A stretch of DNA of 64,000 bases from Candidatus Omnitrophota bacterium (GCA_018817585.1 JAHITE010000125.1:12580-76579), one strand, 5' to 3'. Numbered from the stretch's first letter, positions 2,595 to 64,000 are shown. A program made the numbers and translations. The notes: generated by a model not told the origin, from the letters alone.

Positions 2595-2933
2595 ATGGAT
2601 AAAAAATACTTAAATAATAAAGGTTTATCATTGGTGGAAGTTGTGATGTCAGCGCTATTGCTTACAGTAGTGCTGGCGGCGCTGTTTGCCTCCTATCGAA
2701 ATGCCAATAACTTAATCAATCTTGCGCATAACAAGCTAATTGCTCTGAACTGGGCTGAATCTGTGCTTGAACATGAAAGAGCTAATTTTGGAGGCGCTTA
2801 TACGGACCCGGCTTCGCCTAACTGGCTGACTGTGGAAAAGAGCGCTCCGGCTCCTACTATTGCAAGAATAAATTACGGTGCACCGCAAGCGCATTTGCAG
2901 GAAATTAAAGTTACAATAACCTGGACTGAATAA
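2595..2933 (+). CDS. type IV pilin / pseudopilin with prepilin-type N-terminal cleavage-methylation motif
   Basis: 112 aa; class III signal: basic N-term, G|LSLVEV with Glu+5, hydrophobic helix. Confidence 0.7.
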   Translation: MDKKYLNNKGLSLVEVVMSALLLTVVLAALFASYRNANNLINLAHNKLIALNWAESVLEHERANFGGAYTDPASPNWLTVEKSAPAPTIARINYGAPQAHLQEIKVTITWTE

Positions 2934-2934
2934 T

Positions 2935-3690
2935 ATGAAAAGAAATCAAGGTTTTACCTTACTGGAAGTGCAGATTTCGGCAATGCTGATGATTGTTGTG
3001 CTGATTGCTACCGGAGTTATTTTTTATTTTTCGTTGGCCTCCATAAGGTATATGCAGGATGCTTTTGATGTTTACACAAATGCTACAACCGCGATGAATC
3101 TGATTACCAATGAGGTAATACGGTCTAATTGTTATGGCTCAGCGCAAGGCCCTGGATATGTTGCTGTTCCAGGTAGCTTTTATGGTGCTAATGGGTATCA
3201 GCATGTGCTTGCCGGAGGAGCCTTGGGTGCTTCCGCGGATAGTGTGTATGTTGATATGCCGACATTGAATGATTCCAATGCTATGGTTGTCAGCGGTTTT
3301 GGTTCGGGAAATGGTCTTTATTTACGCCAGGCAACGCAAGCTTCAAGTTCCAGCGGTGTGGCAGCAGATGTTGCTGGAGATTTTCCTTCGCATGAAATAG
3401 TGGAAATATATCGTCAATGGTTTTTTGGTCCGCCGAATAAAATACAATTGATTGTGGATAGAACTGACCCAGTTCTAGGCAGCAGTATTCAAGCTATAGC
3501 GGATAATGTAATTCAGTTTGATTTTAAGCCGATTGCGTATAATTGTGTGCATGTTATTTTGACACTAGAGGGTAAGGTGGATGATCCGATGGCTGCTGGA
3601 GTGAAAAGGCATAGAATTACGCTGAGTAAGCTGATTACTTTGCGCTGCGCGCCTTCTGTTGCGCCAATACCTGGGGTAAATACATGGTGA
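2935..3690 (+). CDS. pseudopilin (minor pilin, PilW/GspJ-like) with prepilin-type N-terminus
   Basis: 251 aa; QG|FTLLEV motif with Glu+5 followed by hydrophobic helix. Confidence 0.65.
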   Translation: MKRNQGFTLLEVQISAMLMIVVLIATGVIFYFSLASIRYMQDAFDVYTNATTAMNLITNEVIRSNCYGSAQGPGYVAVPGSFYGANGYQHVLAGGALGASADSVYVDMPTLNDSNAMVVSGFGSGNGLYLRQATQASSSSGVAADVAGDFPSHEIVEIYRQWFFGPPNKIQLIVDRTDPVLGSSIQAIADNVIQFDFKPIAYNCVHVILTLEGKVDDPMAAGVKRHRITLSKLITLRCAPSVAPIPGVNTW

Positions 3691-3695
3691 TCTGG

Positions 3696-4034
3696 ATGAG
3701 AAAAATGAAATTTTTATCAGCTAAAAATATCCCCAAAAAAACTGACAGAGAAAAAGCCCAGGCAATGGTTGTGTCATTTATTTATGTGAGTATTGTTTCG
3801 CTGATCGCGATTTATATGATGTCTTATGCCCATAATCTGAATAAAGTTGTAAGTCGAGACATAAAACATAGTATGTCTTTTTACGCCGCGGAAGGCGCTT
3901 TAATCAGGGTGATGTCATTACGTGAGTTGGGCCGGCCAACTCCTGTAAACATGGATACAGCGCCGATGACTATTGGCATTCAAACAGCTGTTGATGGAAC
4001 AACCCGAAGGATTACGGCAACTGTTAATTGGTAA
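3696..4034 (+). CDS. small membrane-anchored protein, possible PilX-like pilus-associated protein
   Basis: ORF-track start 3684 overlaps the previous gene; ATG 3696 has a GGTGA RBS 5 nt upstream; single N-terminal TM helix; no recognised catalytic motif. Confidence 0.4.
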   Translation: MRKMKFLSAKNIPKKTDREKAQAMVVSFIYVSIVSLIAIYMMSYAHNLNKVVSRDIKHSMSFYAAEGALIRVMSLRELGRPTPVNMDTAPMTIGIQTAVDGTTRRITATVNW

Positions 4035-4085
4035 TAAAACTTAATTGATGTTTATTTTCTATAAATAATATGGTGGAGGCAAATA

Positions 4086-4904
4086 ATGGCGCCAAAAATA
4101 AAACAGTTTTTACAAAAAATAAAACAGGTAAATAAAGAGTATTTACTGCTTTTTGCAATAGTTACTTTAATTGGATTATTGATCTATTCTTCTACCGCGA
4201 CATCGCAACAATCTCCGGAAGAAATAACCTTAACTACTTTTTATCCTTGTCCTTTTGGAGAGTATGACCGGATTACTGCTTCGAGATTTATTGATTTTGA
4301 TAATGTTAATCGCTGGTTTGATCCTAGCGGAGATACTCAGCTGGAATCTTTGCGGGTTTTTAATGGGATTCTTGCAAATGTAGTTGTTGGTCCAGCCGGG
4401 ACATATTCGGTTAATTTTGTGACTGGCGAGGCGTTTCTTAATGTTGTTACGGCAGATAAACTGGTAATGACTGGGCCAGCGCCTTCGCCAACATATGAAG
4501 TAAATGGTGGAAATTATGTGTGGGATATTGCTGAAGGTATGCTAATTACAGAATGTACCGCGGGTGATGTTGTGATCATCGGCGATGATCCGGGAAAGGG
4601 TTTGGTTAAATCAACTGAAAAATTCGATTCCCGGGTTGCGGGGATTGTTTCCACTGATCCTAAGATTTATATGGGAGCGGCTGAAGATAAAATGCCTTTA
4701 GCTTTGGCCGGGATTGTAAAATGTAACGCGACTGTGGAAAACGGAGCAATTAAACGCGGTGATTTGCTGGTAAGTTCTTCTTTGCCGGGTTATGCTATGC
4801 GGGCTTCGGCAAAAGAAGTAAAGCCCGGGATGCTGGTGGGCAAAGCATTGCAGGAATTAACTTCAGGCCAGGATAAAATTTTTGTTTTAGTTAATAAACA
4901 GTAA
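4086..4904 (+). CDS. hypothetical signal-anchored protein, paralog A of a tandem pair, conserved C-terminal domain
   Basis: 272 aa; strong RBS GGTGGAGG; N-terminal TM/signal anchor; shares VWDIAEG and a 110-aa C-terminal block (FDSRVAGIVS..PKIYMG..PLALAGIVKCN..GAIKRGDLLVSS.PGYAM.A..PGML.GKAL) with the next gene. Confidence 0.6.
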   Translation: MAPKIKQFLQKIKQVNKEYLLLFAIVTLIGLLIYSSTATSQQSPEEITLTTFYPCPFGEYDRITASRFIDFDNVNRWFDPSGDTQLESLRVFNGILANVVVGPAGTYSVNFVTGEAFLNVVTADKLVMTGPAPSPTYEVNGGNYVWDIAEGMLITECTAGDVVIIGDDPGKGLVKSTEKFDSRVAGIVSTDPKIYMGAAEDKMPLALAGIVKCNATVENGAIKRGDLLVSSSLPGYAMRASAKEVKPGMLVGKALQELTSGQDKIFVLVNKQ

Positions 4905-4923
4905 AATATAGAGACTTTTGATT

Positions 4924-5769
4924 ATGAAAAAAATAAAATATTTTAAAATATTAAGTCTTGAGATAATCGGTGTATTATTATTTGCCGCGGGTTTAGGTTT
5001 CGCGCAGCAAGGAGCTGTGAAAACCCTAAGTATTAATACGCATCGATTTCTTTATAACGCGGCAGCGAATTATGTTGCAGCGGCTTATGATGTTTTAGTT
5101 GCTAAACAGTTTATTGATCGAGATCCAGAGGCACTGGCCGGGGGCCATAGTTGTTTTGGGGACCCTAGCGAACAGAGCGATTTGCATCATCTGACAGTTA
5201 ATGATGGACTGGAGTTTGACTATACGGATTCTGGAACCATGACTATAAGTGCTGTGCCTTTAGGGGCATTCTCAATTAATTTCGAAGATGGTTGGGCCGG
5301 TGGAGAAGCATATTTTTCAACTTGTACTGCAGTTAAATTTGTAATGATAACCCCATTTCCTGATTCTAGAAATGATGAGGGCAAAAAAGTATGGGATATT
5401 GCTGAAGGTATTAATGTTGAATTTGGTGATGCTTGTGATGTTGTGGTTATTAGTAAAAATAAAGATTTGACGGTTACGCGTTCAACTGTTAAGTTTGATT
5501 CTAAAGTGGCCGGAGTTATATCGGAGTCACCAAAAATATATATGGGAGATATGGCAGGTAATAAGCCTTTGGCTTTGTCCGGGATTGTTAAGTGCAATGT
5601 GAATACGCAAAACGGGCCGATTAAAAAAGGTGATATTCTGGTAACATCATCAGAGCCTGGATACGCGATGAAAGCTAATGAAAGTCAAGTATTGCCGGGA
5701 ATGATTATTGGCAAAGCTTTGGACGCGCTTGATCAGGGTAAAGGAAAAATTTATATTCTAATCAATTAG
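4924..5769 (+). CDS. hypothetical secreted protein, paralog B of the tandem pair
   Basis: ORF-track start 4918 is TTG; the ATG at 4924 gives MKKIKYF...; signal peptide ending AAGLGFAQQ; C-terminal domain about 55-60% identical to paralog A. Confidence 0.6.
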   Translation: MKKIKYFKILSLEIIGVLLFAAGLGFAQQGAVKTLSINTHRFLYNAAANYVAAAYDVLVAKQFIDRDPEALAGGHSCFGDPSEQSDLHHLTVNDGLEFDYTDSGTMTISAVPLGAFSINFEDGWAGGEAYFSTCTAVKFVMITPFPDSRNDEGKKVWDIAEGINVEFGDACDVVVISKNKDLTVTRSTVKFDSKVAGVISESPKIYMGDMAGNKPLALSGIVKCNVNTQNGPIKKGDILVTSSEPGYAMKANESQVLPGMIIGKALDALDQGKGKIYILIN

Positions 5770-5799
5770 CAATATAGTTCAAATTTCAGGTTTAAAAAG

Positions 5800-5832
5800 C
5801 AGAAGACAGAATAATCTGTCTTCTTTGTTCTC
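5800..5832 (+). terminator. intrinsic terminator after the paralog pair
   Basis: AGAAGACAG-ataat-CTGTCTTCT 9-bp stem followed by TTGTTCT. Confidence 0.55.
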
Positions 5833-5881
5833 ATTACAGGGTTTGCTTGGTTTAAATTTTAAATAAAATCGAGGAGAAATA

Positions 5882-7543
5882 ATGTTACGCAGTGATAAAA
5901 TTAAAAAAGGGTTAGAGCGTGCTCCGCACAGAGCTTTGCTGTTTTCTACAGGTATTTCCAGAAAAGATTTGAGTAAACCGTTTATTGCCGTAGCAAGTTC
6001 GGTTAATGATTTTATTCCTGGTCATGTTGGTATGCGTGATCTGGAAAGATTTGTCGAGCGCGGTATTGTTAGTCAGGGCGCGGTGCCGTTTTTCTTTGGA
6101 CTGCCTGGGATATGCGACGGAATTGCCATGGGGCATGAAGGCATGCATTATCCGCTTGCTTCCCGGGAATTGATTGCTGATTCCGTGGAATCAGTGGTTA
6201 AAGCGCATTGTGCTGACGGATTGGTTTGTATTACAAATTGTGATAAGATTACTCCCGGCATGTTGATGGCTGTAGCTCGGTTAAATATTCCGGCAATTGT
6301 CCTGACCGCGGGGCCAATGCTTTCCGGCAGACAGGGAATGAAACGGTTGTCTTTTGTCCGTGATACTTTTGAAGCATTGTCTTTAACTAAAAGAGGCGAG
6401 ATGAGTAAAGAAGAGCTTTCATGTTTGGAGATGGAAGCTTGTCCTGGGCAGGGATCCTGTCAGGGTTTATATACAGCGAATACAATGGCCTGTTTGACAG
6501 AAGCCATGGGCATGTCTTTGCCCGGCTGTGGTACTGGTTTAGCTGGTATGGCTAAAAAGAAAAGATTAGCTCAGGCAAGCGGAGAACGGATTGTGGAATT
6601 AGTTAAAGCAAATATTACGCCAAGTATGATTATGAATGAGAAATCATTGGAAAACGCGATTATGGTGGATATGGCTTTGGGCGGATCAAGTAATACTGTT
6701 TTGCATCTTTTGGCGATTGCTCATGAATGCGGGATAGAAATTCCTTTGGAGAAATTCGATAAAATAAGCAAGAAAACTCCGCATATAACTGATTTGCGTC
6801 CTGGCGGAGAATATTTTATGGAAGACCTTGAATATTCCGGAGGGATTCCAGCTGTAATGCATAGGCTTAAAGATAAATTAAATGACAACCCGACTGTTTG
6901 CGGGACTAGTGTAAAAAAGCTGGCAGAGTATTCTCAAGTGCTTAATGAAGAAATTGTCCGGCCGCTTAATAAAGCGCATCATAAAGAAGGAGGGATAGCA
7001 GTACTGTTTGGCAACTTAGCCCCAGAGGGCGCGGTTGTAAAGCAGTCCGCTGTCAGTGAGAAAATGATGTACTTTAAAGGCAAGGCGCGTGTTTATAATA
7101 GTGAAGAAGCGGTGATGAAAGATATTCTTTCCGCTAAAGTGAAAAAAGGCACGGTTTTAGTTGTGCGCTATGAAGGCCCGCGCGGCGGACCTGGTATGCG
7201 GGAAATGCTCGCGCCGACAGCGGCAATTGTTGGAATGGGCATGTCTGATGATGTTGCTTTAATCACTGACGGAAGATTTTCCGGCGGAACCAGAGGGCCT
7301 TGTTTAGGACATATTTCTCCAGAAGCAGCAGCCGGCGGTCCGATCGCGGCTGTAAAAAACAATGATGAAATAATCATTGATATAAAAAACAGAAAATTAC
7401 ATTTAAACTTAACTGATCAGGAAATAGCGGAAAGACTGCGCCATGTAAAACATCCGCCGCCAAAGATAAATACCGGATGGCTTAAGCGTTATGCTAAAAT
7501 GGTAAGCTCAGCGAGCAAAGGCGCGGTTTTAGATATTGAATGA
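5882..7543 (+). CDS. ilvD: dihydroxy-acid dehydratase
   Basis: 553 aa; [21 protein letters not shown] and C-terminal [14 protein letters not shown] motifs characteristic of IlvD/EDD. Confidence 0.95.
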
Positions 7544-9236
7544 TAAAAATAAAAAAGGAAATATTATGAAAAAAACAGGCGCGGAGATTATTGTTGAGTC
7601 ACTGTTGAAAGAAGGAGTACGGGTTTTGTTTGGTTATCCCGGCGGTTCAGTTTTACCGCTTACTGATGCCCTCTACGATGCGCCAATTGATTTTATTCTG
7701 GTTCGTCATGAACAGGCAGCGGCGCATGCTGCTGACGGCTATGCCCGGGCAACCGGCAAGGTCGGGGTTTGCATGGCTACATCTGGTCCCGGAGCAACTA
7801 ATTTGGTAACTGGTTTGGCAACAGCGCATATGGATTCTATTCCCATGGTTGCGATTACCGGACAGGTAAACAGTACTTTGATTGGTAATGATGCTTTTCA
7901 AGAAGCGGATATTACCGGAATAACAAGATCCATTACAAAACACAATTATCTGGTTAAAGATATCGCTGAACTGGCCAGTACAATAAAAGAGGCTTTTTAT
8001 ATTGCTTCAACCGGCAGGCCGGGGCCAGTAGTTATTGATGTTCCGGTTGATATCCAAAAACAGAGCATGGAATTTAATTACCCGGAAACAATTAAAATGC
8101 GTTCTTATAATCCGGAAATCGCATTGCCAATGGATCAGATTAAAAAAGCAGCTAAGCTGATTGAAAAAAGCAAAAGACCAGTTGTTTATGCCGGCGGGGG
8201 AATTATAATTTCCCAAGCGCATGATGAACTGCTGGAATTCGCGGTAAAAATCAATGCTCCGGTAACTACGACTTTAATGGGCCTGGGCGGTTTTCCGGAA
8301 ACCAATGAACTGGCCTTGGGAATGCTCGGGATGCATGGTACTGTATACGCGAATCATTCAATAATGGAAAGTGATTTGATTATCGCGGTGGGCGCTCGTT
8401 TTGATGACCGGGTAACCGGCCGGATTGATAAATTCGCGCCAGATGCCAAAGTAATTCATATTGATATTGATCCAACCGCGATCAGCAAGAACATCCGTGT
8501 AGATATCCCGGTTATTTGCGATGCCAAGCAAGGGCTGCGGGCTTTGAATAAAATTGTAAAAAGATTAGAAACAGATGCCTGGCTGAAAAAGATTCATGGC
8601 TGGAAAACAAAAGCGCCTTTGCAGTATCAAACATCAGGTCAAAAAATCAGACCGCAGTATGTTGTAGAGCAGATTTACAAAATAACCAAAGGTGACGCGA
8701 TTATTTGTACTGAAGTCGGACAGAATCAGATGTGGGCAGCGCAGTATTATAATTATACTAAACCGCGCACATGGATTTCATCCGGCGGCTTGGGAACAAT
8801 GGGCTATGGTTTTCCCGCGGCGATTGGCGCTAAACTGGGCAGACCAGATAAAATAGTTTTTGATATAGCGGGTGATGGTTCAATTCAAATGAATATTCAA
8901 GAGCTGGCTACTGCTGTAGCGAATAAGGTTAATGTTAAAATCGCGATATTGAATAATGGATATCTGGGCATGGTTAGACAATGGCAAGAGCTGTTCTATA
9001 ATCGGAGATACGCGAATACGCCAATAACTGGTCCGGATTTTGTGAAATTAGCGGAAAGTTATGGTGCTGCAGGGATAAGAGTTAAGAAAAAAGCCGATGT
9101 TGCCGCGGCAATTAAGCAGGCAATTGCTATTCCCAATGTAGTTTTTCTTGATTTTGTAGTTGAACCAGAAGAAAATGTTTTTCCCATGGTTCCTGCTGGT
9201 GAGGCCATAGATCGGATGATCGGCGGAATGGCGTAA
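7536..9236 (+). CDS. ilvB: acetolactate synthase large subunit (ThDP-dependent)
   Basis: 566 aa; [15 protein letters not shown]-terminus, ThDP motif [14 protein letters not shown]. Confidence 0.95.
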
Positions 9237-9445
9237 AATGCAGCGCATAGCGGTTAGAAAAAGCAGAAAAATAGAAAACAGAAAAAGCGGTAAAAGGTTT
9301 GACGGTGACGAAGCCCGTATCGGTAACGTTAACGGTCACGGTTTAAAATAATAAATTTTAAGCCGATAGACTTTGCCCTAAAACGAAACGGGCACCGTAA
9401 CCTTAAACGTAACCTTTGTATTTTAAATAATAGGGAGTTAAAAAC

Positions 9446-9919
9446 ATGAAACATATAATTTATGCTTTAGTAGAAAATAAGCCGGGTGTTTTGGCTCGGA
9501 TTTCTAGTTTGTTTAGTGCCCGGGGTTTTAATATTGATTCATTGGCTGTGGGAGAAACGCATGATCCGACGATGTCGAGAGTTAGTTTGGTTGTTGATGC
9601 TAAAGAAGAAAAAATCCTGGATCAGATTAAAAAACAATTGGAGAAATTGGTTGATGTTATATCCGTAACAGATCTGACAAAAAAGAAATTTTTTGAAAGA
9701 GAGCTTATTTTAGTAAAAGTTAAGACAAATAAAATGACAAAGCAGAAGCTGGAAACTTTAGTTAAGAAATTTTCCGCGACAATTTTGTCCTATAATGAAA
9801 AAGCAGCTGTGATTGAAGCTATTGGCGAAAAAAAACTGTTGATGGAGCTGCTGGATTGCTTGCAGCCCATCGGGATTGAAGAACTGGTGAGAACCGGTAG
9901 AATTGCCATAGCACAGTAA
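9446..9919 (+). CDS. ilvN: acetolactate synthase small (regulatory, ACT domain) subunit
   Basis: 157 aa; ALVENKPGVLARISSLFSARGFNIDSL typical ACT N-terminus of IlvN/IlvH. Confidence 0.9.
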   Translation: MKHIIYALVENKPGVLARISSLFSARGFNIDSLAVGETHDPTMSRVSLVVDAKEEKILDQIKKQLEKLVDVISVTDLTKKKFFERELILVKVKTNKMTKQKLETLVKKFSATILSYNEKAAVIEAIGEKKLLMELLDCLQPIGIEELVRTGRIAIAQ

Positions 9920-9959
9920 CATTTTTTAAATAATTGGCTTATTAAAAAGGGATTAAATT

Positions 9960-11036
9960 ATGTTGACCATGGAGTACTTGCTTAAGCTGATTGTGGATAA
10001 AGGCGCGTCAGATCTGCATCTTACAGTAGGGATTCCGCCGCAGCTGCGTATCGGAGGGCAATTAACTTATACAACCAGCGAGCTTATAGATCCGGAAACA
10101 TTGAGAAAGCTGGCATATAGCCTTTTGACCAGTGATCAGATCGCATGGTTTGAGCAGAAAAAAGAGCTTGATTTTTCCTGCGGTTTAGAAGGAGTCAGCC
10201 GGTTTAGGATAAACTTATATTATCAGCGGGGATCGATTGCCATGGCCGCGAGGGTTATTCCGTTTATTATTCCGACAATTGAACAGCTGGGATTGCCGGA
10301 AATAGTTAAAGAATACGCGGATAAACCAAATGGATTAGTTCTGCTTACCGGAGCAACCGGCAGTGGTAAATCAACTACTCAGGCCGCGATCATTGATTAT
10401 ATTAATAAGCGGAGAAGAGCGCATATAATTTCAGTTGAAGACCCGATTGAGTATTTGCACAAGCACCAGCTTTGTACAATTAATCAGCGTCAGCTGGGCA
10501 CAGATACGCTTTCTTTTGCCGAGGCTTTAAAGCATGTATTGCGCCAGGATCCGGATATAGTGGTTATTGGTGAAATGCGGGATCTTGAGACAATTCAGGC
10601 AGCTTTGACTTTAGCGGAAACAGGGCATTTGGTTTTTGCCACACTGCATACCAGCAGCGCGGTTAATTCAATTACCCGAATAGTTGATGTGTTTCCGGCG
10701 CATCAGCAGCAGCAAATCCGCGTGCAGCTTTCATTGGTATTAGTCGGAGTTTTGGTTCAGCGATTGATCCCCAATGCTGTGGGCGAAGGCAGGTCCTTAG
10801 CAATGGAGATTATGACCATGATCTCGGGGATACAGAATCTGATCCGAGAAAATCAAGTGCATCAGATATATTCGCTGATTCAAACCGGCAGACGTTTTGG
10901 GATGAGAACAATGAATCAGGCATTGTGTGATTTAGTGACAAGCAATAAGATAACTTTTGGCGAGGCTTTAAAACAAACTGCGGACGAGCAGGAATTAAAT
11001 TCATTAGTTCAAAAACAAAATAATAAAAACATGTAA
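9960..11036 (+). CDS. pilT: type IV pilus retraction ATPase PilT/PilU family
   Basis: 358 aa; Walker A LLTGATGSGKSTT, AIRNLIRE-like GIQNLIRENQ motif, PilT length; embedded between ilvN and ilvC. Confidence 0.88.
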   Translation: MLTMEYLLKLIVDKGASDLHLTVGIPPQLRIGGQLTYTTSELIDPETLRKLAYSLLTSDQIAWFEQKKELDFSCGLEGVSRFRINLYYQRGSIAMAARVIPFIIPTIEQLGLPEIVKEYADKPNGLVLLTGATGSGKSTTQAAIIDYINKRRRAHIISVEDPIEYLHKHQLCTINQRQLGTDTLSFAEALKHVLRQDPDIVVIGEMRDLETIQAALTLAETGHLVFATLHTSSAVNSITRIVDVFPAHQQQQIRVQLSLVLVGVLVQRLIPNAVGEGRSLAMEIMTMISGIQNLIRENQVHQIYSLIQTGRRFGMRTMNQALCDLVTSNKITFGEALKQTADEQELNSLVQKQNNKNM

Positions 11037-21651: not shown

Positions 21652-22572
21652 ATGAAACTTACCCGCAGACAATTCCTCAAGATCTTTGGGGCTTCAGCTG
21701 TTGGCGCGGGGATTACTAGTTTGTATAATCCGGCATTGGTTGAGGCTTTAGCGGCAGACGATGGCAAGCCTCCGGTTATTTGGATTCAAGGAGCCGGATG
21801 TAATGGCTGTTCAGTTTCACTTTTAAATACTGTTCATCCGAAAATTGCTGAAGTTTTATTACATATTATAAGTTTAAGGTATCATCCTGCGTTAATGGCT
21901 GGGACAGGGAAAACTGCTTTTGATGTTATTTATGAAGTAGCCGAAGAGTTTAAGGGCAAATATATCGTTGTTCTTGAAGGCGGCATCCCGACAGCGGAAG
22001 ACGGGGCTTATTGCACTGTCGGTGAATATAATGGCCGTCATGTTAAATTAACTGATCTGATTGATTTTCTTGTACCTAATGCTGCTGCTTTGGTTGCCGT
22101 AGGCGCTTGTGCTGCTTTTGGCGGAATTCCTAAAGGCAAACCTAATCCTACTGGAGTTAAAGGTTTTGCTGAATACACTGGGAAAACTGTAGTTAATGTT
22201 TCCGGGTGTCCAGTACATCCTGATTGGATTGTCGGAACTCTAGTTCATGTGCTGCATTATGGGATGCCTGAATTGGATAAGCATAATAGACCAAAATTGT
22301 TTTATGGTAAAAATCTCCACGATAATTGTCCTAACTATTCCTATTTTGCTAAAGGTAAATTCGCGGAAAAATTAAGTGATGATGGATGTTTGGTGAATAT
22401 TGGCTGTAAAGGGCCAATGACTTATGCTGATTGTCCTCTCCGGCATTGGAATAGCGGAGTAAACTGGTGTATCGGATCAGGAACAGGATGTATTGCTTGT
22501 ACTGAGCCGAATTTTCCAGATGCTGCTTCGCAGATGTACGCTAAGTTACCTGATGACATGATTCCTAGCTGA
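21652..22572 (+). CDS. [NiFe] hydrogenase small subunit, Tat-exported
   Basis: 306 aa; twin-arginine signal TRRQFLK; proximal cluster motif GAGCNGCSVSLL; further Cys ligands GCPVHP, CKGPMTYADCP, CIGSGTGCIAC. Confidence 0.9.
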   Translation: MKLTRRQFLKIFGASAVGAGITSLYNPALVEALAADDGKPPVIWIQGAGCNGCSVSLLNTVHPKIAEVLLHIISLRYHPALMAGTGKTAFDVIYEVAEEFKGKYIVVLEGGIPTAEDGAYCTVGEYNGRHVKLTDLIDFLVPNAAALVAVGACAAFGGIPKGKPNPTGVKGFAEYTGKTVVNVSGCPVHPDWIVGTLVHVLHYGMPELDKHNRPKLFYGKNLHDNCPNYSYFAKGKFAEKLSDDGCLVNIGCKGPMTYADCPLRHWNSGVNWCIGSGTGCIACTEPNFPDAASQMYAKLPDDMIPS

Positions 22573-22601
22573 ATAGTTTGACAAGATAAAAGGATGCGGC
22601 C

Positions 22602-24014
22602 ATGGCTAAACAAACCATAAGTATTGATCCAGTTACCCGAATTGAAGGGCATCTTAAAATAGAAGTTGATGTTGATAATGGAAAAGTTATTGATGCTCGT
22701 TCTATTGGAACGTTGTTCAGAGGTTTTGAAACTATATTAAATGGTAGAGATCCGAGAGATGCCCAGATGATAACTCAACGTATTTGCGGAGTTTGCTCGA
22801 TCAGTCATGGGATTGCGGCTACGCTGAATCTTGATTCAGCGTTTAATGTAAGTCCGCCATCAAATGGGCGGATTGTTCGAAATTTAATTCTGAGTGGTAA
22901 TTATATTCAATCGCACATATTGCATTTTTACCATTTGGCTGCGCTTGATTTTGTTACCGGCCCGGATGTCGCTCCGTTTATTCCCAGATATAAAGGGGAT
23001 TACTTATTGCCTAAAAAGGTTAATGACGCGGCAGTTGAGCATTATATGCAGGCTTTGGATATGCGAATGAAAGCGCATGAATTAACCGCTTTGTGGTCAG
23101 GGAAAGTTCCCATGGCGCAGTCGATAACTCCCGGCGGAGTTTCGCAAAAAGTATCGGTTGATAGAATTGCCTCAGCTTTATGGAGAATTCGTGAGCTTAA
23201 AGATTTTGTGAAAAATGTTTATATTTCCGATGTTTTAGCGGTTGCTGATGTATATAAGGATTACGGGACTGTGGGTGTTGGTTATAAAAACTTTCTTTCT
23301 TATGGAGTTTTTGCCGAGAACAATGAAAAAACAGAGTTTTTATTTAAATCAGGAATCTATACTGCGGATATTGATTTGGAAATGAACGCGCAAAAGATTA
23401 CTGAAGATGTTGAATTTTCCTGGTATAAAAAAGAAATTGGCAGAAAACATCCTGCTGAAGGGCAGACTGACCCTGATCTGCACAAAGAAAATGCTTATTC
23501 ATGGGTAAAAGCGCCTCGTTACGATGGTATCCCTCACGAAGTCGGCCCATTAGCTAGAATGTGGATCAATGGAGATTATCGAAAAGGCGCTTCGCTTTTA
23601 GATCGTCATGCGGCGCGTGCTTTGGAAACTCTCAAAGTTGCTGAGGCTATGGAAAAGTGGGTATTGCAGTTAAAGCCCGGTGAGCCGGTTTTTACTGCTT
23701 TTGAAATACCGGTTAATGCGGAAGGAATGGGTTTGACTGAAGCCCCGCGGGGTGCCCTTGGCCATTGGATAAAAATCGAGAATAAAAAAATAGCTAATTA
23801 TCAGGCGGTAGTGCCTTCCACCTGGAATTTAAGTCCAAAAGATGAGGATTTTCAGCGTGGTCCGGTTGAGGAAGCATTGATTGGCTGCCCTGTGCCGGAT
23901 GCGGATAATCCAATAAACGTAGCAAGAATTGTTCGTTCATTTGATCCTTGCCTTGCTTGCGCAGTTCATTTGACAAAACCAAATGGGGAAATGAAGAAAT
24001 TTAGAGTTTGTTAG
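22602..24014 (+). CDS. [NiFe] hydrogenase large subunit
   Basis: 470 aa; N-terminal RICGVCSISHG and C-terminal DPCLACAVH Ni-Fe ligands with a short tail after His, the substrate for the maturation protease. Confidence 0.92.
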   Translation: MAKQTISIDPVTRIEGHLKIEVDVDNGKVIDARSIGTLFRGFETILNGRDPRDAQMITQRICGVCSISHGIAATLNLDSAFNVSPPSNGRIVRNLILSGNYIQSHILHFYHLAALDFVTGPDVAPFIPRYKGDYLLPKKVNDAAVEHYMQALDMRMKAHELTALWSGKVPMAQSITPGGVSQKVSVDRIASALWRIRELKDFVKNVYISDVLAVADVYKDYGTVGVGYKNFLSYGVFAENNEKTEFLFKSGIYTADIDLEMNAQKITEDVEFSWYKKEIGRKHPAEGQTDPDLHKENAYSWVKAPRYDGIPHEVGPLARMWINGDYRKGASLLDRHAARALETLKVAEAMEKWVLQLKPGEPVFTAFEIPVNAEGMGLTEAPRGALGHWIKIENKKIANYQAVVPSTWNLSPKDEDFQRGPVEEALIGCPVPDADNPINVARIVRSFDPCLACAVHLTKPNGEMKKFRVC

Positions 24015-24050
24015 AACTAGATAGTTTAATCTTAATAATTTGGGTGTTTT

Positions 24051-24503
24051 TTGTTTAAAAAAATAACAATATTGGGAATCGGTAATTTATTACTCAAAGA
24101 TGAGGGTGTGGGGATTCACGCTATTGAGGCATTAAGAAAAGAATCGCTGCCTGATAATGTTGAGCTTGTGGATGGAGCGGCGTCAGGATTTGATTTATTG
24201 CCAATAATCGAGCAATGTGATAAGTTGATTGTAATTGACGCGATTAAGATTGCTGAACAGCCGGGAACAATATATCAATTCGACCCCAAGCAGATTGATG
24301 TTAAGCGAGATTTAAATATGTCTCTGCATGATGTTGACTTTTTTCAAGTGCTTGAATTTGCCAATAAACATCGGTGGTTGCCAGAGATATTGATGATCGG
24401 GATTGTTCCTAATGAGATTTGTTTAAGTATGGATTTATCTGATATTATTAAAGGGAAAATACCGAGGATTGTGTATTTAGTTAAGCAAGCAATAGAGAAT
24501 TAA
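24051..24503 (+). CDS. hydrogenase maturation endopeptidase (HyaD/HybD family)
   Basis: 150 aa; ILGIGNLLLKDEGVGIHAIE N-terminus typical of the family. Confidence 0.85.
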   Translation: MFKKITILGIGNLLLKDEGVGIHAIEALRKESLPDNVELVDGAASGFDLLPIIEQCDKLIVIDAIKIAEQPGTIYQFDPKQIDVKRDLNMSLHDVDFFQVLEFANKHRWLPEILMIGIVPNEICLSMDLSDIIKGKIPRIVYLVKQAIEN

Positions 24504-59766: not shown

Positions 59767-60003
59767 ATGTTTAGCATAGGAATGCCGGAATTAATTTTAG
59801 TTTTTGTGGTTGCCTTGCTGGTATTTGGGCCTAAAAAACTGCCAGAGATTGGTAGAATGTTGGGTAAAGCAATGCGTGAATTTAAAAAAGCCTCAGATGA
59901 TTTTAAAGAAGCTTTAAATCAAGAACCTCCGGAAGAAATAGTTAAAGAAGTGGAAGCTGCGTTAAAAGCGAATAAAGAAAAAGAAGGGGAGATCTATAAG
60001 TGA
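59767..60003 (+). CDS. tatA: twin-arginine translocase subunit TatA/B family
   Basis: 78 aa; [27 protein letters not shown] signature. Confidence 0.85.
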
Positions 60004-60716
60004 AGAAAATTACTGATATGGATACTCCTCTTTCGCTTATGGACCATTTGGAGGAATTGCGCAATCGGATCCTTTTTTCTCTGGTTTTAATAATCAGCTG
60101 CACGGCATTGGTTTATAACTTTACTACAGAGATTATGAATATTTTAGTTCGTTCTGTGGGTAAATTGTATTTTATGGGTCCGGCCGAGGCTTTTTGGGTT
60201 AAAGTAAAATTAGCTTTTTTTATTGGATTATATTGCTCTTTGCCTTTTTTGTTCTATCAAATATGGAAATTCGTTGAGCTTGGCTTAAGGCGGGATGAGA
60301 AGAAACAAGTTTTACCTTTAACAATTTTCAGTTTTTTATTATTTACAATCGGCGCTTGCTTCTGTTATTTTTTCGTTATTCCTGTGGCAATAAAGTTTTT
60401 ACTTTCTTATGGCACAGAGACATTGATTCCCTTGATATCAGTGAGTAAGTATCTTTCATTTATTGGTTGTCTGGTGTTCGCGTTTGGCAGTACTTTTCAA
60501 CTACCTTTGGTTTTAATGTTTATGGCCAGAATCGGGATCGTTAACGCGCGATCATTATGTAAGTTCAGGCGTTTTGCTGTCTTGGGCAGTTTTATTGTCG
60601 GCGCGGCGCTTACACCGACTCCTGATATGGTTAATCAGACATTGCTGGCTTTGCCGATAATTGTGTTATATGAATTGAGTATATTGTTGATCAGAATTTT
60701 TGAAAGGAAGGGATAA
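60000..60716 (+). CDS. tatC: twin-arginine translocase subunit TatC
   Basis: 238 aa; six TM helices; [13 protein letters not shown]-terminus typical of TatC. Confidence 0.9.
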
Positions 60717-60897
60717 AATGGGAAGATTTGGCATGCCGGAATTAGTATTGATATTATTTATTCTATTACTTTTGTTTGGGGCAAGTAAACTGCCGGAAAT
60801 AGCCCGTTCAATGGGGCAGAGCATTAATGAATTTAAGAAAACAATGAATGCTAAGGAAGATAAAGGCAAGGCTGATAAATCAGAAGAACAAAAGTAG
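60700..60897 (+). CDS. second TatA/E-family subunit
   Basis: 65 aa; MGRFGMPELVLILFILLLLFGASKLPE. Confidence 0.85.
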   Translation: MKGRDKMGRFGMPELVLILFILLLLFGASKLPEIARSMGQSINEFKKTMNAKEDKGKADKSEEQK

Positions 60898-61007
60898 TTT
60901 TTACCAAGGTATTGAGTGTGAATAAAGCGTAATTCTTTTTGGCTGGGAAATTAATGAGTCGCGAAGACACTGGCTTTAACTTAAAATAGAGCAGCTATAA
61001 TTAATAA

Positions 61008-61041
61008 AAAAGAGACATTAAATCAATAATGTCTCTTTTTA
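61008..61041. terminator. bidirectional intrinsic terminator between convergent genes
   Basis: AAAAAGAGACATT-aaatcaat-AATGTCTCTTTTT, with A/T runs on both sides. Confidence 0.7.
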
Positions 61042-61060
61042 TATGCTCAAAATGATTAAA

Positions 61061-61579
61061 TTACCAGGCAAAGTTGCTGTTTTTTTCAGTTGCTTGTTTT
61101 TTCTGATCCTTAGAATTTTTCTTTGCTTCTGGTTCTGGTTTCTTTTTTATTGTATTTTGTTTAAGCTGTTCAAGTTCTTGGTTTAAGCTAAGCTCTTTTT
61201 CTTTTAGTCGAACTAACTCTTCACCGAGTATTGTATTAGTATCTTTTAATTCCTCTAATGTTTTACTGCTTTGATTATGGCCTTCTTTGGTGATTTGCAG
61301 CTTAGAGCGTAATTCTTCTTTTGCTTTTTCTTCTTCTTTTAGATTATTTTTTAATTCGTATTCTTTTTGCTGTAAGCTTGCGATTTTATTCTGAATGCTT
61401 TTAAGATTATTAGTGATAACCGTGTTCGCTAAAGTTAGTTTTTCCAGTTTCGCATTAAGCTCTTTACTTTTTTCTAATTCAACTCGTTTTCTGGAATTAG
61501 CTCCTGCTGCCCATAAAACACAGATAATTGTACTTAAAAGAAGCAGAAGAACAAGCTTCCGGAGCATTGATTCTTTCAT
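61061..61579 (-). CDS. secreted coiled-coil protein of unknown function
   Basis: 172 aa; signal peptide then heptad-rich Lys/Glu/Leu sequence. Confidence 0.45.
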   Translation of the reverse strand: MKESMLRKLVLLLLLSTIICVLWAAGANSRKRVELEKSKELNAKLEKLTLANTVITNNLKSIQNKIASLQQKEYELKNNLKEEEKAKEELRSKLQITKEGHNQSSKTLEELKDTNTILGEELVRLKEKELSLNQELEQLKQNTIKKKPEPEAKKNSKDQKKQATEKNSNFAW

Positions 61580-61582
61580 TTT

Positions 61583-62230
61583 TTATTTCATAGCTCCGCT
61601 CTGTTGCCCAGATTTCTTTTTAATGATTTTCTCTGGTAAAATAGTAATTTCTACGCGTCTGTTTTGTTCCCGGTCTACTTTGCTGTCATTGGATGCTACT
61701 GGCCGAAATTCCCCATAGCCAACAGCGGATAAACGTCTGGGATCAATATCTCTATTGTCTACAAGATAGTGCAGTACGCTTGTTGCCCGGGCAGTGGAAA
61801 GTTCCCAGTTTGATTTCCAATTAGATTGTTTGATCGGCTGATTATCAGTGTGTCCTTCAATCGCGATATCCCGATTACTGACTTGATTATTTAATACCGT
61901 GGAAACTCTGTCCAATACAGAATAGGCTGATTTTCTTAATTCAGCTTTACCCGAATCAAATAATACTTCATCAACAAATGTGATTACCAGGCCTTTATTG
62001 AGCATTTCTACCCGGATTTGTTTTTCTTCGATTTCTTTTTTAAGCTGTTCGGCAAGTTCATTTCTGGCACGCTCTAATTGCTCTCGAGCTAATCTTTCCT
62101 GGGAAAGCTCTGAACTTAAATTATCAATTTTATCTAAGTCATTAGGATTTCTTTTTTGCAGAATGATTGAACAGCCGCAGAGACTAATTAATAATGGTAC
62201 TGCAATTAAATATTTCCATTTAGCAAACAT
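61583..62230 (-). CDS. OmpA-family peptidoglycan-associated lipoprotein (Pal/MotB-like C-domain)
   Basis: 215 aa; lipobox LISLCGCS; OmpA C-domain IEGHTDNQP...LSTARATSV...RRVEI. Confidence 0.8.
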   Translation of the reverse strand: MFAKWKYLIAVPLLISLCGCSIILQKRNPNDLDKIDNLSSELSQERLAREQLERARNELAEQLKKEIEEKQIRVEMLNKGLVITFVDEVLFDSGKAELRKSAYSVLDRVSTVLNNQVSNRDIAIEGHTDNQPIKQSNWKSNWELSTARATSVLHYLVDNRDIDPRRLSAVGYGEFRPVASNDSKVDREQNRRVEITILPEKIIKKKSGQQSGAMK

Positions 62231-62253
62231 ATATACCTCCTTAATTTTAATGA

Positions 62254-62742
62254 TTAATTAGAATTATTATTCTTAGTTTGATCAAGATATATTTTTAAAG
62301 CAGCCCAGGTTTTATTACCGACAATCCCATCAACTGTTAAATTATTTTCTTTTTGAAATTCCTGAATTGCTTTTTTTGTTTTTGGTCCGAGTTTCCCGTC
62401 AATATCTCCAATATCAAATCCCGCATTATGCAAGGCGTTTTGGACATCAATAATTCGATATCCTTTGGCCGCGAGATTAGCATCTTTACCTACAGCCGGT
62501 AATACCTCTGTGGGAGATACGCTAACTCTTGCCGCGGGTTCCGATTGATCTCCCATTAGCAGCTGCCTGTTAGCTTCAGGTTGACTTATTATTTCAATTT
62601 CCGGCAGAACATATCTTTCAGATTCTCTTTTTTTCGCGGCTTTTGGGCGTTTACTCATTGCTAGGGAATAAGGCGTAAAGCTGATTAATATAATTACCGC
62701 GAAAAAAAATATTAAAATATTAAAAAATAATTTTTTTTTCAA
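62254..62742 (-). CDS. secreted peptidoglycan-binding-domain (PG_binding_1) protein
   Basis: 162 aa; signal sequence; C-terminal LHNAGFDIGDIDGKLGPKTKKAIQEFQKENNLTVDGIVGNKTWAAL. Confidence 0.7.
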   Translation of the reverse strand: MKKKLFFNILIFFFAVIILISFTPYSLAMSKRPKAAKKRESERYVLPEIEIISQPEANRQLLMGDQSEPAARVSVSPTEVLPAVGKDANLAAKGYRIIDVQNALHNAGFDIGDIDGKLGPKTKKAIQEFQKENNLTVDGIVGNKTWAALKIYLDQTKNNNSN

Positions 62743-62850
62743 TTAAAGTCCCCTAGACTGTATGAATCAGAAAGTAATTAAATTCTATCATTTTTAAAAT
62801 TTAAAGTCAAGCATCGCGCTGTCCTTATTGCTAAGGATAGCGCTGCTTAA

Positions 62851-62934
62851 CTACGCGCCACGAGTAGGCTTACGTCCGTGGTTCGCTTTCTTTGATTTCC
62901 ACTTAAGCTTACCTTTTCTTGTTCTTTTTGCCAT
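62851..62934 (-). CDS. unannotated 27-aa highly basic protein, possibly ribosomal protein bTHX-like
   Basis: MAKRTRKGKLKWKSKKANHGRKPTRGA; RBS AGGTGA 6 nt upstream; hairpin downstream; KRTRKGKLKW resembles Thermus THX RRTRRGKIWRG (from memory). Confidence 0.4.
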   Translation of the reverse strand: MAKRTRKGKLKWKSKKANHGRKPTRGA

Positions 62935-63109
62935 TGCTTTTCACCTGCCTTTAATCTGTCCAAAGAGAGTTCCTTGGAATTTCTATTAACATTTAAACAT
63001 GTTTTGGCTTAAAATTGGCGCTAAACTTTATTTATTTTTACATATTCTTTACTATATTGAGACAAAAAAGCCAATTTGTCAATCTCGATTTTGAAAAACA
63101 TCTAATGTT

Positions 63110-64000
63110 TTATGTCGAAGCAGAAGCACTAAGCGAGTATTTAGAACGTTTGCCTTTTTTAAATAAATGATATCCCAGCACTCCGATCATCGCGGCATTA
63201 TCCAGACAAAGATGAATGTTCGGGAATAATACTTGAATATTTGCTTGTTTTCCTGCCGCTTGAAGCTGTTTTCGGAGAAAACTATTGCAGGCAACTCCGC
63301 CGCCTACTGATAAGCAATTAATATTATGTTTTTTACAGGCAGCGATGCTCTTGGTTACCAATATTTCCACTACTTGTTTTTGGAATGCGTGGGCAATTTG
63401 CGTTTTTGCTTTTTTATTTTTAATCTTTAATTTATTCCAAGTGTACAGAACATCAGTTTTTATGCCGCTAAAACTAAAATCAAAACTATTTTCCAGTTTA
63501 GCGCATTTTAGCTGAAAAGGAGAAAGACTGATGCTTGAGGCAAGTTTATCAATCTGCGGTCCGCCGGGATAAGGTAACTCCAATAATTTCGCGACTTTAT
63601 CATAAGCTTCTCCAGCCGCGTCATCGCGGGTATTTCCAATTATTTTAATATTATCAAAATCTTTTACCAGGGCTAAACTAGTATGTCCGCCGGAAACAGT
63701 TAATCCGATAAACGGAAATTGAAATTTTTTTTCCTGGATAAACGGCGCGAACATATGCGCGTGAATGTGATTGACCCCGAGAAACGGTTTATTGATTGCT
63801 AAGCTAATAGCTTTAGCAAAAGATAGTCCGACTAAAAGCGAACCAACCAGCCCAGGAGCATAAGTCGCGGCAATCAAATCAATATCCGATAGGTTTAGAT
63901 CAGCTTTTTTTAGCGCGTCTTCGACAACCAAAGTTATATATTCTAAATGAAAGCGAGAGGCTATTTCCGGTACAATGCCGCCGAATTTACGATGCATGTG
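63110..64000 (-). CDS. tsaD: tRNA N6-adenosine threonylcarbamoyltransferase TsaD (Kae1/Gcp), 5'-truncated by window edge
   Basis: HRKFGGIVPEIASRFH, GLTVSGGHT and C-terminal GGGVACNSFLR motifs; the N-terminus lies beyond position 64000. Confidence 0.9.
   Translation of the reverse strand, partial: HMHRKFGGIVPEIASRFHLEYITLVVEDALKKADLNLSDIDLIAATYAPGLVGSLLVGLSFAKAISLAINKPFLGVNHIHAHMFAPFIQEKKFQFPFIGLTVSGGHTSLALVKDFDNIKIIGNTRDDAAGEAYDKVAKLLELPYPGGPQIDKLASSISLSPFQLKCAKLENSFDFSFSGIKTDVLYTWNKLKIKNKKAKTQIAHAFQKQVVEILVTKSIAACKKHNINCLSVGGGVACNSFLRKQLQAAGKQANIQVLFPNIHLCLDNAAMIGVLGYHLFKKGKRSKYSLSASAST

Follow-up and report, generated by a model that had tools for sequence, protein, structure and literature searches.

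The five-gene cluster

The window analysed here is a stretch of 64,000 nucleotides from a metagenome-assembled genome of Candidatus Omnitrophota (Omnitrophica) (GCA_018817585.1, JAHITE010000125.1:12580-76579). Close to its beginning lies a cluster of five open reading frames (ORFs), all present and all on the + strand, that forms one operon with its own promoter-like site and terminator hairpin. The first three genes look, by their sequences, like a PilV / second-pilin / PilX set of minor pilins, and they are followed by two tandem paralogs, A and B, which end in a shared C-terminal domain. This report deals with that domain, with its probable kinship to an assembly domain of phage fibres, and with its association with pilin genes. 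The features of the cluster, with lengths in amino acids (aa), are as follows.

2550-2577, + strand: sigma-70-like promoter candidate, TTGACT-16 nt-TATAAT with a TG extension, 11 of 12 consensus matches
2595-2933, + strand: minor (pseudo)pilin 1, PilV/GspI/ComGE-like, 112 aa, prepilin motif NNKG↓LSLVEV with Glu+5
2935-3690, + strand: minor (pseudo)pilin 2, 251 aa, prepilin motif RNQG↓FTLLEV
3684-4034, + strand: PilX-like small membrane protein, 116 aa, one hydrophobic helix
4086-4904, + strand: paralog A, 272 aa, with N-region, helix, signal-peptidase site, variable region and C-terminal domain
4524-4901, + strand: C-terminal Peptidase_G2-like / beta-tulip domain of A, residues 147-272, 126 aa
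4918-5769, + strand: paralog B, 283 aa from TTG, or 281 aa from the ATG at 4924 (the NCBI call, P0001)
5395-5766, + strand: C-terminal Peptidase_G2-like / beta-tulip domain of B, residues 160-283, 124 aa
5801-5834, + strand: intrinsic-terminator-like hairpin with a 10-bp stem and AUAA loop, plus UUGUUCUCAUU

The five genes are separated, in order, by a 1-nucleotide gap, a 7-nucleotide overlap, a 51-nucleotide gap and a 13-nucleotide gap, spacing that fits a single operon; the 51-nucleotide gap before paralog A holds the ribosome-binding site GGTGGAGG. The promoter, a candidate by consensus match alone, ends 18 nucleotides upstream of the first gene. At the other end, the hairpin proper spans 5801-5824 with the U-rich stretch directly after it (minimum free energy -15.3 kcal/mol, fold z-score -2.6), in agreement with a preliminary description of the locus that had the cluster end at a clean terminator. 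Paralog B is 100% identical to the NCBI protein KKD05_11820.

Genes 1 and 2 each carry a basic leader up to a Gly, Glu at +5 and a hydrophobic helix, as type IV pilins do. Pilin 1 matches the Pfam family N_methyl with an E-value of 5.6e-4 and 19.8 bits, which is below the gathering score of 21.2, and gives weak matches to ComGE, PilV, XpsI and GspI in NCBIfam; pilin 2 matches N_methyl at E 0.011, again below the gathering score, and only its size and position make it PilW/GspJ-like. Searched by sequence against the PDB, neither pilin produced a useful match. The third gene lacks the Gly↓Phe-x-x-x-Glu cleavage motif and encodes a KAQAMVV-hydrophobic helix followed by a FYAAEAAL/FYAAEGAL motif, both common to 13 aligned orthologs; the copy in the window has no significant Pfam match. 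In a scan of 20 sequences from this cassette, comprising orthologs of genes 1 and 2 as well as gene 3 sequences, N_methyl was matched by nine (best E 2.5e-6) and PilX_N (PF14341) by two (best E 1.7e-4), with further weak matches to PilV, GspI, XpsI and ComGE. The two prepilin-type genes and the small membrane protein that the preliminary description reported are thus all upheld, the former by motifs read in the sequence together with sub-threshold N_methyl matches. In classical type IVa operons, pilY1 follows pilV-pilW-pilX. Paralogs A and B occupy this pilY1 slot after the PilX-like gene, as had been argued earlier, and the comparison is positional only.

That A and B are tandem paralogs is confirmed by BLASTP, with 43% identity over 228 aa (E 3e-55), and since the match covers 228 aa the similarity reaches beyond the C-terminal block of ~110 aa that had been delimited before. 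The block itself is real, but its extent was drawn too short, for the domain starts about 35 residues earlier, at V-W-D-I-A-E-G, and it extends to the C-terminus in both proteins. Upstream of it, paralog A begins with a long basic region that includes a conserved N-[KR]-E-Y; a hydrophobic helix follows, then a probable signal-peptidase site (...ATS↓QQ), beyond which lie ITLTTFYPCPFGEY and a variable region. Paralog B has a classical Sec signal peptide (...GFA↓QQG) and then a variable region of ~130 aa. Near the predicted signal-peptide cut (...S↓QQ, ...A↓QQ), Q30 is nearly invariant in the alignment of the A/B family. The conserved N-[KR]-E-Y just before the helix is a feature of A-type proteins, and an ordinary signal peptide ending in FAQQG one of B-type proteins; prepilin-like processing of A at the N-[KR]-E-Y was considered and rejected, as no Gly is conserved at a fixed position.

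The A/B family encompasses 46 close relatives. Within the family, mean pairwise identity is 62% for the C-terminal domain versus 34% for the rest of the protein. In the AlphaFold2 (AF2) model of full-length B only the helix at residues 2-27 and residues 158-283 are confident, and residues 90-157 have a predicted local distance difference test score (pLDDT) below 50. A search with the mature N-terminal part of A alone returned no scored match.

Placing the C-terminal domain

Neither A nor B gave a match that reached any threshold in Pfam, NCBIfam, PHROGs or the sequences of the PDB, and against Peptidase_G2 (PF11962; gathering score 25 bits) there was no match even at E<=1. We worked with two profiles, a narrow domain profile (A2) and a broadened one (A3). 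The narrow profile found nothing in the PDB, so that the link to Peptidase_G2 is made through intermediate sequences, profile-profile comparison and fold.

When A2 was run against 1.84 billion cluster representatives, it retrieved 28,933 proteins with E<=1e-3, each standing for a cluster at 50% identity; at the stricter cut-off of E<=1e-10 there were 22,970. Together with the 46 close relatives, this takes the observation far beyond chance. The relative P0071 matches Peptidase_G2 with 37.1 bits exactly at the start of the domain, and the relative P0139 also matches it there. Across 40 diverse members, the Pfam families found were Phage_cement_2 (9/40), XM1_gp53_minor_capsid (8/40) and Peptidase_G2 (7/40, counted at E<=0.1, with a best E of 6e-4). 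Searched with A3, the PDB yielded two chains of the pre-neck appendage protein gp12 of phage phi29 (6qz9_A, E 0.0024; 3gqh_A, E 0.004) and the phi29 head-fibre base (6qyy, E 0.004), the latter matching the second half of the domain. A match to an Aureispira grappling-hook protein in the same search, at E 8.3, was treated as chance. The two kinds of relative divide the domain between them: the half with the D-x-A-E motif matches Peptidase_G2 only, and cement proteins match the second half only. In direct comparison with gp12 residues 651-854, hhalign aligns A3 with 93.3% probability (E 2.8e-7) and A2 with 73%.

The fold points the same way. Modelled alone with AF2, the B domain is all-beta and confident (pLDDT 91.1, predicted template modelling score (pTM) 0.85). 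Foldseek comparison of this model with the PDB gives a group of cement and decoration proteins, including Pam3 (8hdt_G, E 1e-4), the phi29 gp8.5 base (6qyy), HFTV1 and TW1 (5wk1_K, template modelling (TM) score 0.62). The top query-normalised TM score, 0.69, belongs to pre-mature phi29 gp12 (3suc), and the C-terminal gp12 fragment 3gqh_A reaches 0.60, at modest E (0.018). Among predicted viral structures in BFVD there are 83 matches at E<=1e-3, with TM scores of 0.80-0.86 at no more than 36% identity, and these include proteins named 'Preneck appendage protein' (TM 0.80-0.81, E 2e-9) and 'Tail fiber protein' and an Mtd_N protein. The fold of the domain thus agrees with that of gp12 domain D4 in 3suc, in 3gqh_A and in the BFVD pre-neck appendage matches. 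ECOD places the G2 domain in the gpD decoration-protein fold (PMC13397572), with which the matches to cement proteins are in line.

We conclude that the C-terminal block is very probably a compact domain of Peptidase_G2 / beta-tulip type, closest to the auto-chaperone of phi29 gp12. In the preliminary description the block could not be placed in a known family, a view that no longer holds once the suggested profile searches and structure prediction are done, as the domain folds confidently and lies near Peptidase_G2.

The predicted cleavage site

The domain opens with a motif whose Asp and Glu (D160 and E163 in B, D147 and E150 in A) do not vary among 38 family members. Among 306 domain instances, made up of the best 150 profile matches and the close family, the D, A and E of D-x-A-E are kept in 90%, 87% and 92%, respectively. 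In every alignment, whether by HMMER or hhalign, D-I-A-E pairs with D692-F-A-E695 of gp12 (numbering derived from the phi29 record). The crystallised C-terminal fragment of gp12, PDB chain 3gqh_A, has as its residue 1 the Asp that aligns with the D of D-I-A-E; the domain therefore has both the D-x-x-E of Peptidase_G2 and, in gp12, a cleaved counterpart starting at that very Asp. According to Xiang et al. 2009, gp12 is said to cut itself between S691 and D692 by means of this Asp/Glu pair. The catalytic role of D692 and E695, which we take from that work and from MEROPS family G2 as our assumption, finds its only support here in the start of 3gqh_A.

For A, alignment with the gp12 cut site predicts a cut at W146↓D147, and for B one at W159↓D160. 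Self-cleavage at the D-x-A-E site is, on present evidence, somewhat more probable than its absence, and with signal removal it would leave N-terminal products of ~105 (A) and ~130 (B) residues. The D4 domain of gp12 works as a trimeric auto-chaperone; cleavage comes once the trimer has formed, and release then follows with ATP (PMC13397572; PMC13317679; PMC4690869). In both phi29 and Dpo31 the domain trimerises, helps the upstream part to fold and is then removed (PMC13397572; PMC13317679).

A faint resemblance to the Ser-Lys dyad of the S74 chaperone domains had also been suggested for an S-x-x-x-K spacing in A and B. The dyad itself is rejected: neither protein matches PF13884, and conservation of the Lys does not extend beyond the short family, for across the 306 instances the Ser is kept in 89% but the position of the Lys is missing from the conserved columns (broad consensus GVVSTxPGxxxG). 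What does survive of the suggestion is the general type, an intramolecular chaperone, albeit of a different family.

Proteins that carry the domain

The domain ends proteins that appear otherwise unrelated. In the cyanobacterium Phormidesmis priestleyi it ends the 442-aa protein P0044, which has the tail-fibre position in a contractile-injection-system locus (L010) of the extracellular type (eCIS), ordered GPD, base_V, PAAR, gp25, Baseplate_J ... eCIS_core. At 8001-10975 of this locus, adjacent genes in the fibre position carry different C-terminal chaperones, G2-like in P0044 and then Peptidase_S74. In PA5oct-like jumbo phages the domain ends a baseplate/tail-pin virion protein, and in other Omnitrophota it ends proteins of 480-590 aa with GNVGIGT-type fibre repeats. 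In Chitinophaga it closes a collagen-like protein region; at 2728-6411 of L070 (Chitinophaga sp. E66, CP079103.1) the region has GPAGP repeats, is also Gly/Asn-rich, and is split into ORFs at 2728-4233, 4227-5297, 5294-5677 and 5878-6411, a division that points to frameshifts or to separate genes.

In Patescibacteria (Woesebacteria, Uhrbacteria, Saccharimonadales) the domain is found in giant proteins of 768-5,766 aa, as 2-6 internal copies. The D-x-A-E motif is kept in the internal copies of several of these (P0047, P0050, P0065, P0071, P0092 and others), which would imply either several self-cleavage sites or a purely structural use. One giant member has been named 'capsid cement protein' by NCBI.

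The long fibre proteins share a further element with paralog A. In A-type proteins the helix is followed by ITLTTFYPxPFGxY, and this TT[FY]YPxP[FY]GxY motif also opens P0038, P0041 and the fibre proteins at 4732-6396 and 6829-8565 of locus L033. These two L033 proteins, of 554 and 578 aa, are encoded in tandem within 4732-8565 and have identical 5' gene ends (MGGEEAQPFDASSITRGEVMFNTGV...), which suggests recent duplication. Between the two, on the opposite strand, lies an ORF for 139 aa (6455-6874) that is a candidate PIN/VapC-like protein by eye only.

An assembly role for the domain would fit this distribution, as collagen-like, tail-fibre and tail-spike proteins are trimers throughout and require a device that sets their chains in register. 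The preliminary description had proposed the conserved block as an adhesin module. The domain is the most conserved part of A and B and ends unrelated fibre proteins, which makes an assembly or cleavage module the likelier assignment; the contrast between 62% and 34% identity is the opposite of the pattern expected for a receptor-binding head. The block is thus most likely a trimerising, probably self-cleaving assembly module, and the fibre is more likely to be found in the variable N-terminal half.

Linkage to pilin genes

The short, two-domain family to which A and B belong has been found only in genomes of Omnitrophota and the Planctomycetes-Verrucomicrobia-Chlamydiae group, and in contig L019, which is labelled Patescibacteria. 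Eleven short-family loci reach far enough upstream for the pilins to be looked for, and in every one an ortholog of pilin 1 with the same NNKG↓LSLVEV motif lies 1.4-2 kb upstream of the paralogs; the genes run from pilin 1 through pilin 2 and the PilX-like gene to one or two copies of A type, with a single B-type copy last. A second type of locus (L030, L033) is arranged differently, as exbD-cutA-PilX-like-three pilins-long G2-domain fibre(s)-...-pilMN, and there too a G2-domain fibre follows directly after the last pilin. Synteny with pilin genes in relatives, which had been put forward as a check, is therefore kept in 11/11 short-family loci as well as in L030 and L033.

The tsaB-alr...ilvD-ilvB-pilT neighbourhood is collinear across the short-family loci. 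Within the same genome pairs (L012-L028), the cassette is 28-84% identical versus 73-97% for its flanks (ilvD, ilvB, pilT). Such fast divergence of the pilin-fibre cassette is typical of genes whose products are surface-exposed or interact with a host. Nearly all Omnitrophota have type IVa pili, for which a role in host attachment has been proposed (PMC10066038). The literature search yielded no earlier account of proteins of G2 or tail-fibre type from either minor-pilin operons or Omnitrophota, and the association of a G2-type domain with minor pilins in this phylum appears undescribed.

A proposed function and its alternatives

On balance, and by a modest preference, we favour an explanation in which the cluster, a minor-pilin operon, also holds the genes for two phage-fibre-like subunits that are exported and have a trimerising, self-cleaving C-terminal domain. 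A and B would be exported via Sec, after which three C-terminal domains would associate into homotrimers or A/B heterotrimers. The trimer would align the N-terminal parts in register and template their folding, and each chain would then cut itself before the invariant Asp of D-I-A-E. The matured N-terminal trimer, made from the fast-evolving parts of ~105-130 aa, would act as the functional surface fibre or adhesin, mounted on or co-assembled with a PilV/W/X-type tip complex of a pilus for cell or host attachment. The tip complex is its most likely mount given that A and B are encoded within a minor-pilin operon, in the place of PilY1, although display of A and B at the pilus tip, taken by itself, is a tentative proposal to which we give slightly less than even chances.

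A bolder version can be drawn up, in which a pilus-tip adhesin has been built from phage-tail-fibre parts. A and B would form a heterotrimeric short fibre, matured in the periplasm by an ATP-independent, self-cleaving mini-G2 domain and docked by its TT[FY]YPxP[FY]GxY motif on a pseudo-threefold PilV/W/X tip, where it would replace PilY1 as the fast-evolving host-recognition head of host-dependent nanobacteria; the giant Patescibacteria proteins would likewise be cut by their 2-6 internal copies. We regard this as an unlikely elaboration when taken in full.

A number of observations weigh against the explanation that we favour. A and B fall below every curated family threshold, the narrow profile is empty in the PDB, the sequence alignment with gp12 spans only the first ~80 columns, ending about column 100, and an insertion of ~50 residues in gp12 is missing from the domain. 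The lowest Foldseek E-values belong to cement proteins, which are not known to self-cleave. Release of gp12 is ATP-dependent, and there is no ATP outside the cytoplasm. Furthermore, 207 of the 306 domain instances are internal, as 2-6 copies per giant protein, and these fit poorly with a simple model of a C-terminal domain that is cleaved and discarded. The N-terminal halves have no confident monomer model, so that a trimeric fibre is not demonstrated, and neither A nor B has a pilin-like N-terminus. As to the linkage, the shared neighbourhood means that the 11 loci amount to roughly one evolutionary event; tandem paralogs occur after a V-ATPase operon in L007, and a paralog pair between queF and apbE in L008, with no pilin nearby in either case; and members outside the Omnitrophota, including the L010, Chitinophaga and Acidobacteriota loci, have no pilin genes nearby.

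Some of these same facts could be explained if the domain were a stable, non-cleaving beta-tulip knob, trimerisation or cement module, kept on the mature protein and possibly acting as a distal binding head, with D-x-A-E in a structural role. This would account for the closeness of cement and decoration proteins and the phi29 head-fibre base in Foldseek, for Phage_cement_2 being the commonest Pfam match among members, for the 'capsid cement protein' name and for the repeated internal copies, which suggest a structural building block, and it would need no ATP-dependent release of the gp12 kind, impossible outside the cytoplasm (PMC13397572). However, cement proteins match only the second half of the domain, whereas the D-x-A-E half finds Peptidase_G2 and nothing else, and its Asp and Glu, invariant in the family and kept at around 90% across the wider set, stand at the start of the cleaved gp12 fragment. 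A binding head should also be the part that varies most, yet the domain is the most conserved part of the protein. We judge a non-cleaving module to be improbable, at roughly one chance in a handful.

The pilus, too, might be dispensable to the story. A and B could be phage-fibre-like envelope or surface proteins independent of it, or cargo of a pseudopilus like that of type II secretion systems (T2SS), their adjacency to the pilins being no more than inherited gene order; the whole tsaB-alr-...-ilvD-ilvB-pilT block is, after all, collinear in all short-family loci, paralogs occur without a nearby pilin in L007, L008 and all non-Omnitrophota members, and the three pilins are no closer to PilV/W/X than to a tip set of GspI/J/K type. 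Against a mere inheritance of order stand the tight packing and overlap of the five genes between a single promoter-like site and a single terminator hairpin, the evolution of the cassette as a unit and much faster than its flanks, and the differently ordered locus type of L030 and L033, which again puts a G2-domain fibre directly after the last pilin. Independence from the pilus therefore strikes us as unlikely, to about the same degree as the non-cleaving module. The abundance of the domain in phage tail-fibre-type proteins, and its presence in one eCIS locus, might finally suggest that the paralogs are tail-fibre genes left by a prophage or contractile injection system and inserted beside the pilins by chance. 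Around the operon, though, the window holds no further phage or eCIS genes, the same chromosomal position is occupied in Omnitrophota genomes whose ilvD is just 75-96% identical, A and B have Sec-type signal sequences unlike virion proteins, and the GC content is unremarkable. We reject such an origin as highly improbable on gene context and conserved chromosomal position.

If the favoured explanation is correct, a domain family of at least 28,933 clusters, missed in A/B-type proteins by current Pfam, NCBIfam and PHROG models, gains a name and a testable chemistry, namely a cut before the Asp of D-x-A-E. It would also mean that a phage fibre-assembly device has been reused by cells outside the cytoplasm and within a type IV pilus minor-pilin operon, that a phylum believed to live by attachment to other cells has a pilus-associated adhesin of a new type, and that the processing of giant Patescibacteria surface proteins can be framed as a concrete hypothesis. 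If the domain assignment alone holds, the result is a useful annotation and no surprise.

The wider window

Two further genes of the window concern type IV pili.

9960-11036, + strand: PilT-like T2SSE ATPase, PF00437 on the identical gene in L001
14892-15902, + strand: prepilin peptidase, A24_N_bact (E 2e-28) and Peptidase_A24 (E 2.5e-19)

The pilT-like gene sits between ilvN and ilvC, a placement kept in L002-L005, and the prepilin peptidase, the enzyme required for processing both prepilins, is encoded directly after aroE. Type IV pilus genes are thus dispersed among genes for amino-acid biosynthesis, and this layout of pilT and the prepilin peptidase is kept in the relatives L002-L005. Genes for a major pilin, PilB and PilC were not found within the 64-kb window.

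Elsewhere, a NiFe hydrogenase cluster at 21652-24503 encodes a small subunit with a Tat signal, a large subunit and a HycI-type maturation protease; just upstream of it are genes for a DUF4416 protein, an M48 peptidase, a 2-thiouracil desulfurase-like protein and a cation efflux protein. GC skew is positive across the window and turns negative beyond ~61 kb (60000-64000), and at the same point the long ORFs change from the + to the - strand (61061-63997), which resembles a switch point of the replication terminus (or origin) type.

Comparison with known systems

The domain placed here is a compact variant of a known phage assembly domain, and one that we infer to be exported. Its closest counterpart, D4 of phi29 gp12 (PF11962, IPR021865; PDB 3SUC, 3GQH), is likewise an all-beta body located C-terminal to a fibre or spike region. 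Both start with D-[FIL]-A-E, and the downstream motifs GD.V...S....GV[VI]SE. are common to the two. The differences lie in size and setting. The A/B domain is ~125 aa long as against ~163 aa in gp12, the insertion of ~50 residues being absent, and the region upstream of it is ~105-130 aa in A and B compared with a beta-helix enzyme of ~600 aa in gp12. Judged from their sequences, moreover, A and B are cellular and Sec-exported, which makes an ATP-dependent release step implausible.

The cement and decoration proteins that were compared (Phage_cement_2, PF09956/DUF2190; XM1 gp53; the TW1 capsid stabilising protein; the phi29 gp8.5 base) share with the A/B domain the gpD-like beta-tulip fold (Foldseek E 1e-4 to 1e-2, TM 0.5-0.62) and the second-half sequence IK.GD.L....G.A......G.A.E. 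They are trimers, and a trimer is correspondingly predicted for the A/B domain. In contrast to A and B, they are free-standing virion proteins on the three-fold axes of capsids, neither attached to fibres nor exported, and the N-terminal half with D-x-A-E is unmatched in them.

Peptidase_S74 (PF13884) offers a parallel in mode of action. In the fibres of endosialidase and T5 pb1, this C-terminal trimeric chaperone templates the fibre and then removes itself (PMC4690869). A chaperone mode is what we propose for A and B, and the two types of domain occur on adjacent fibre genes in L010. However, the S74 fold is helical and tentacle-like, and its chemistry employs a Ser-Lys catalytic dyad.

Finally, A and B can be compared with the PilY1 tip adhesins, with which they share a gene slot directly after a PilX-like gene and, presumably, a role in adhesion. 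Unlike PilY1, they are small and paralogous and carry a phage-type assembly domain, with no pilin N-terminus. Homology with PilY1 is rejected, no PilC/PilY1 propeller match being found in Pfam or NCBIfam. A precedent for a trimeric pilus tip is nonetheless provided by CofB, which with TcpB represents the trimeric tip minor pilins of type IVb pili.

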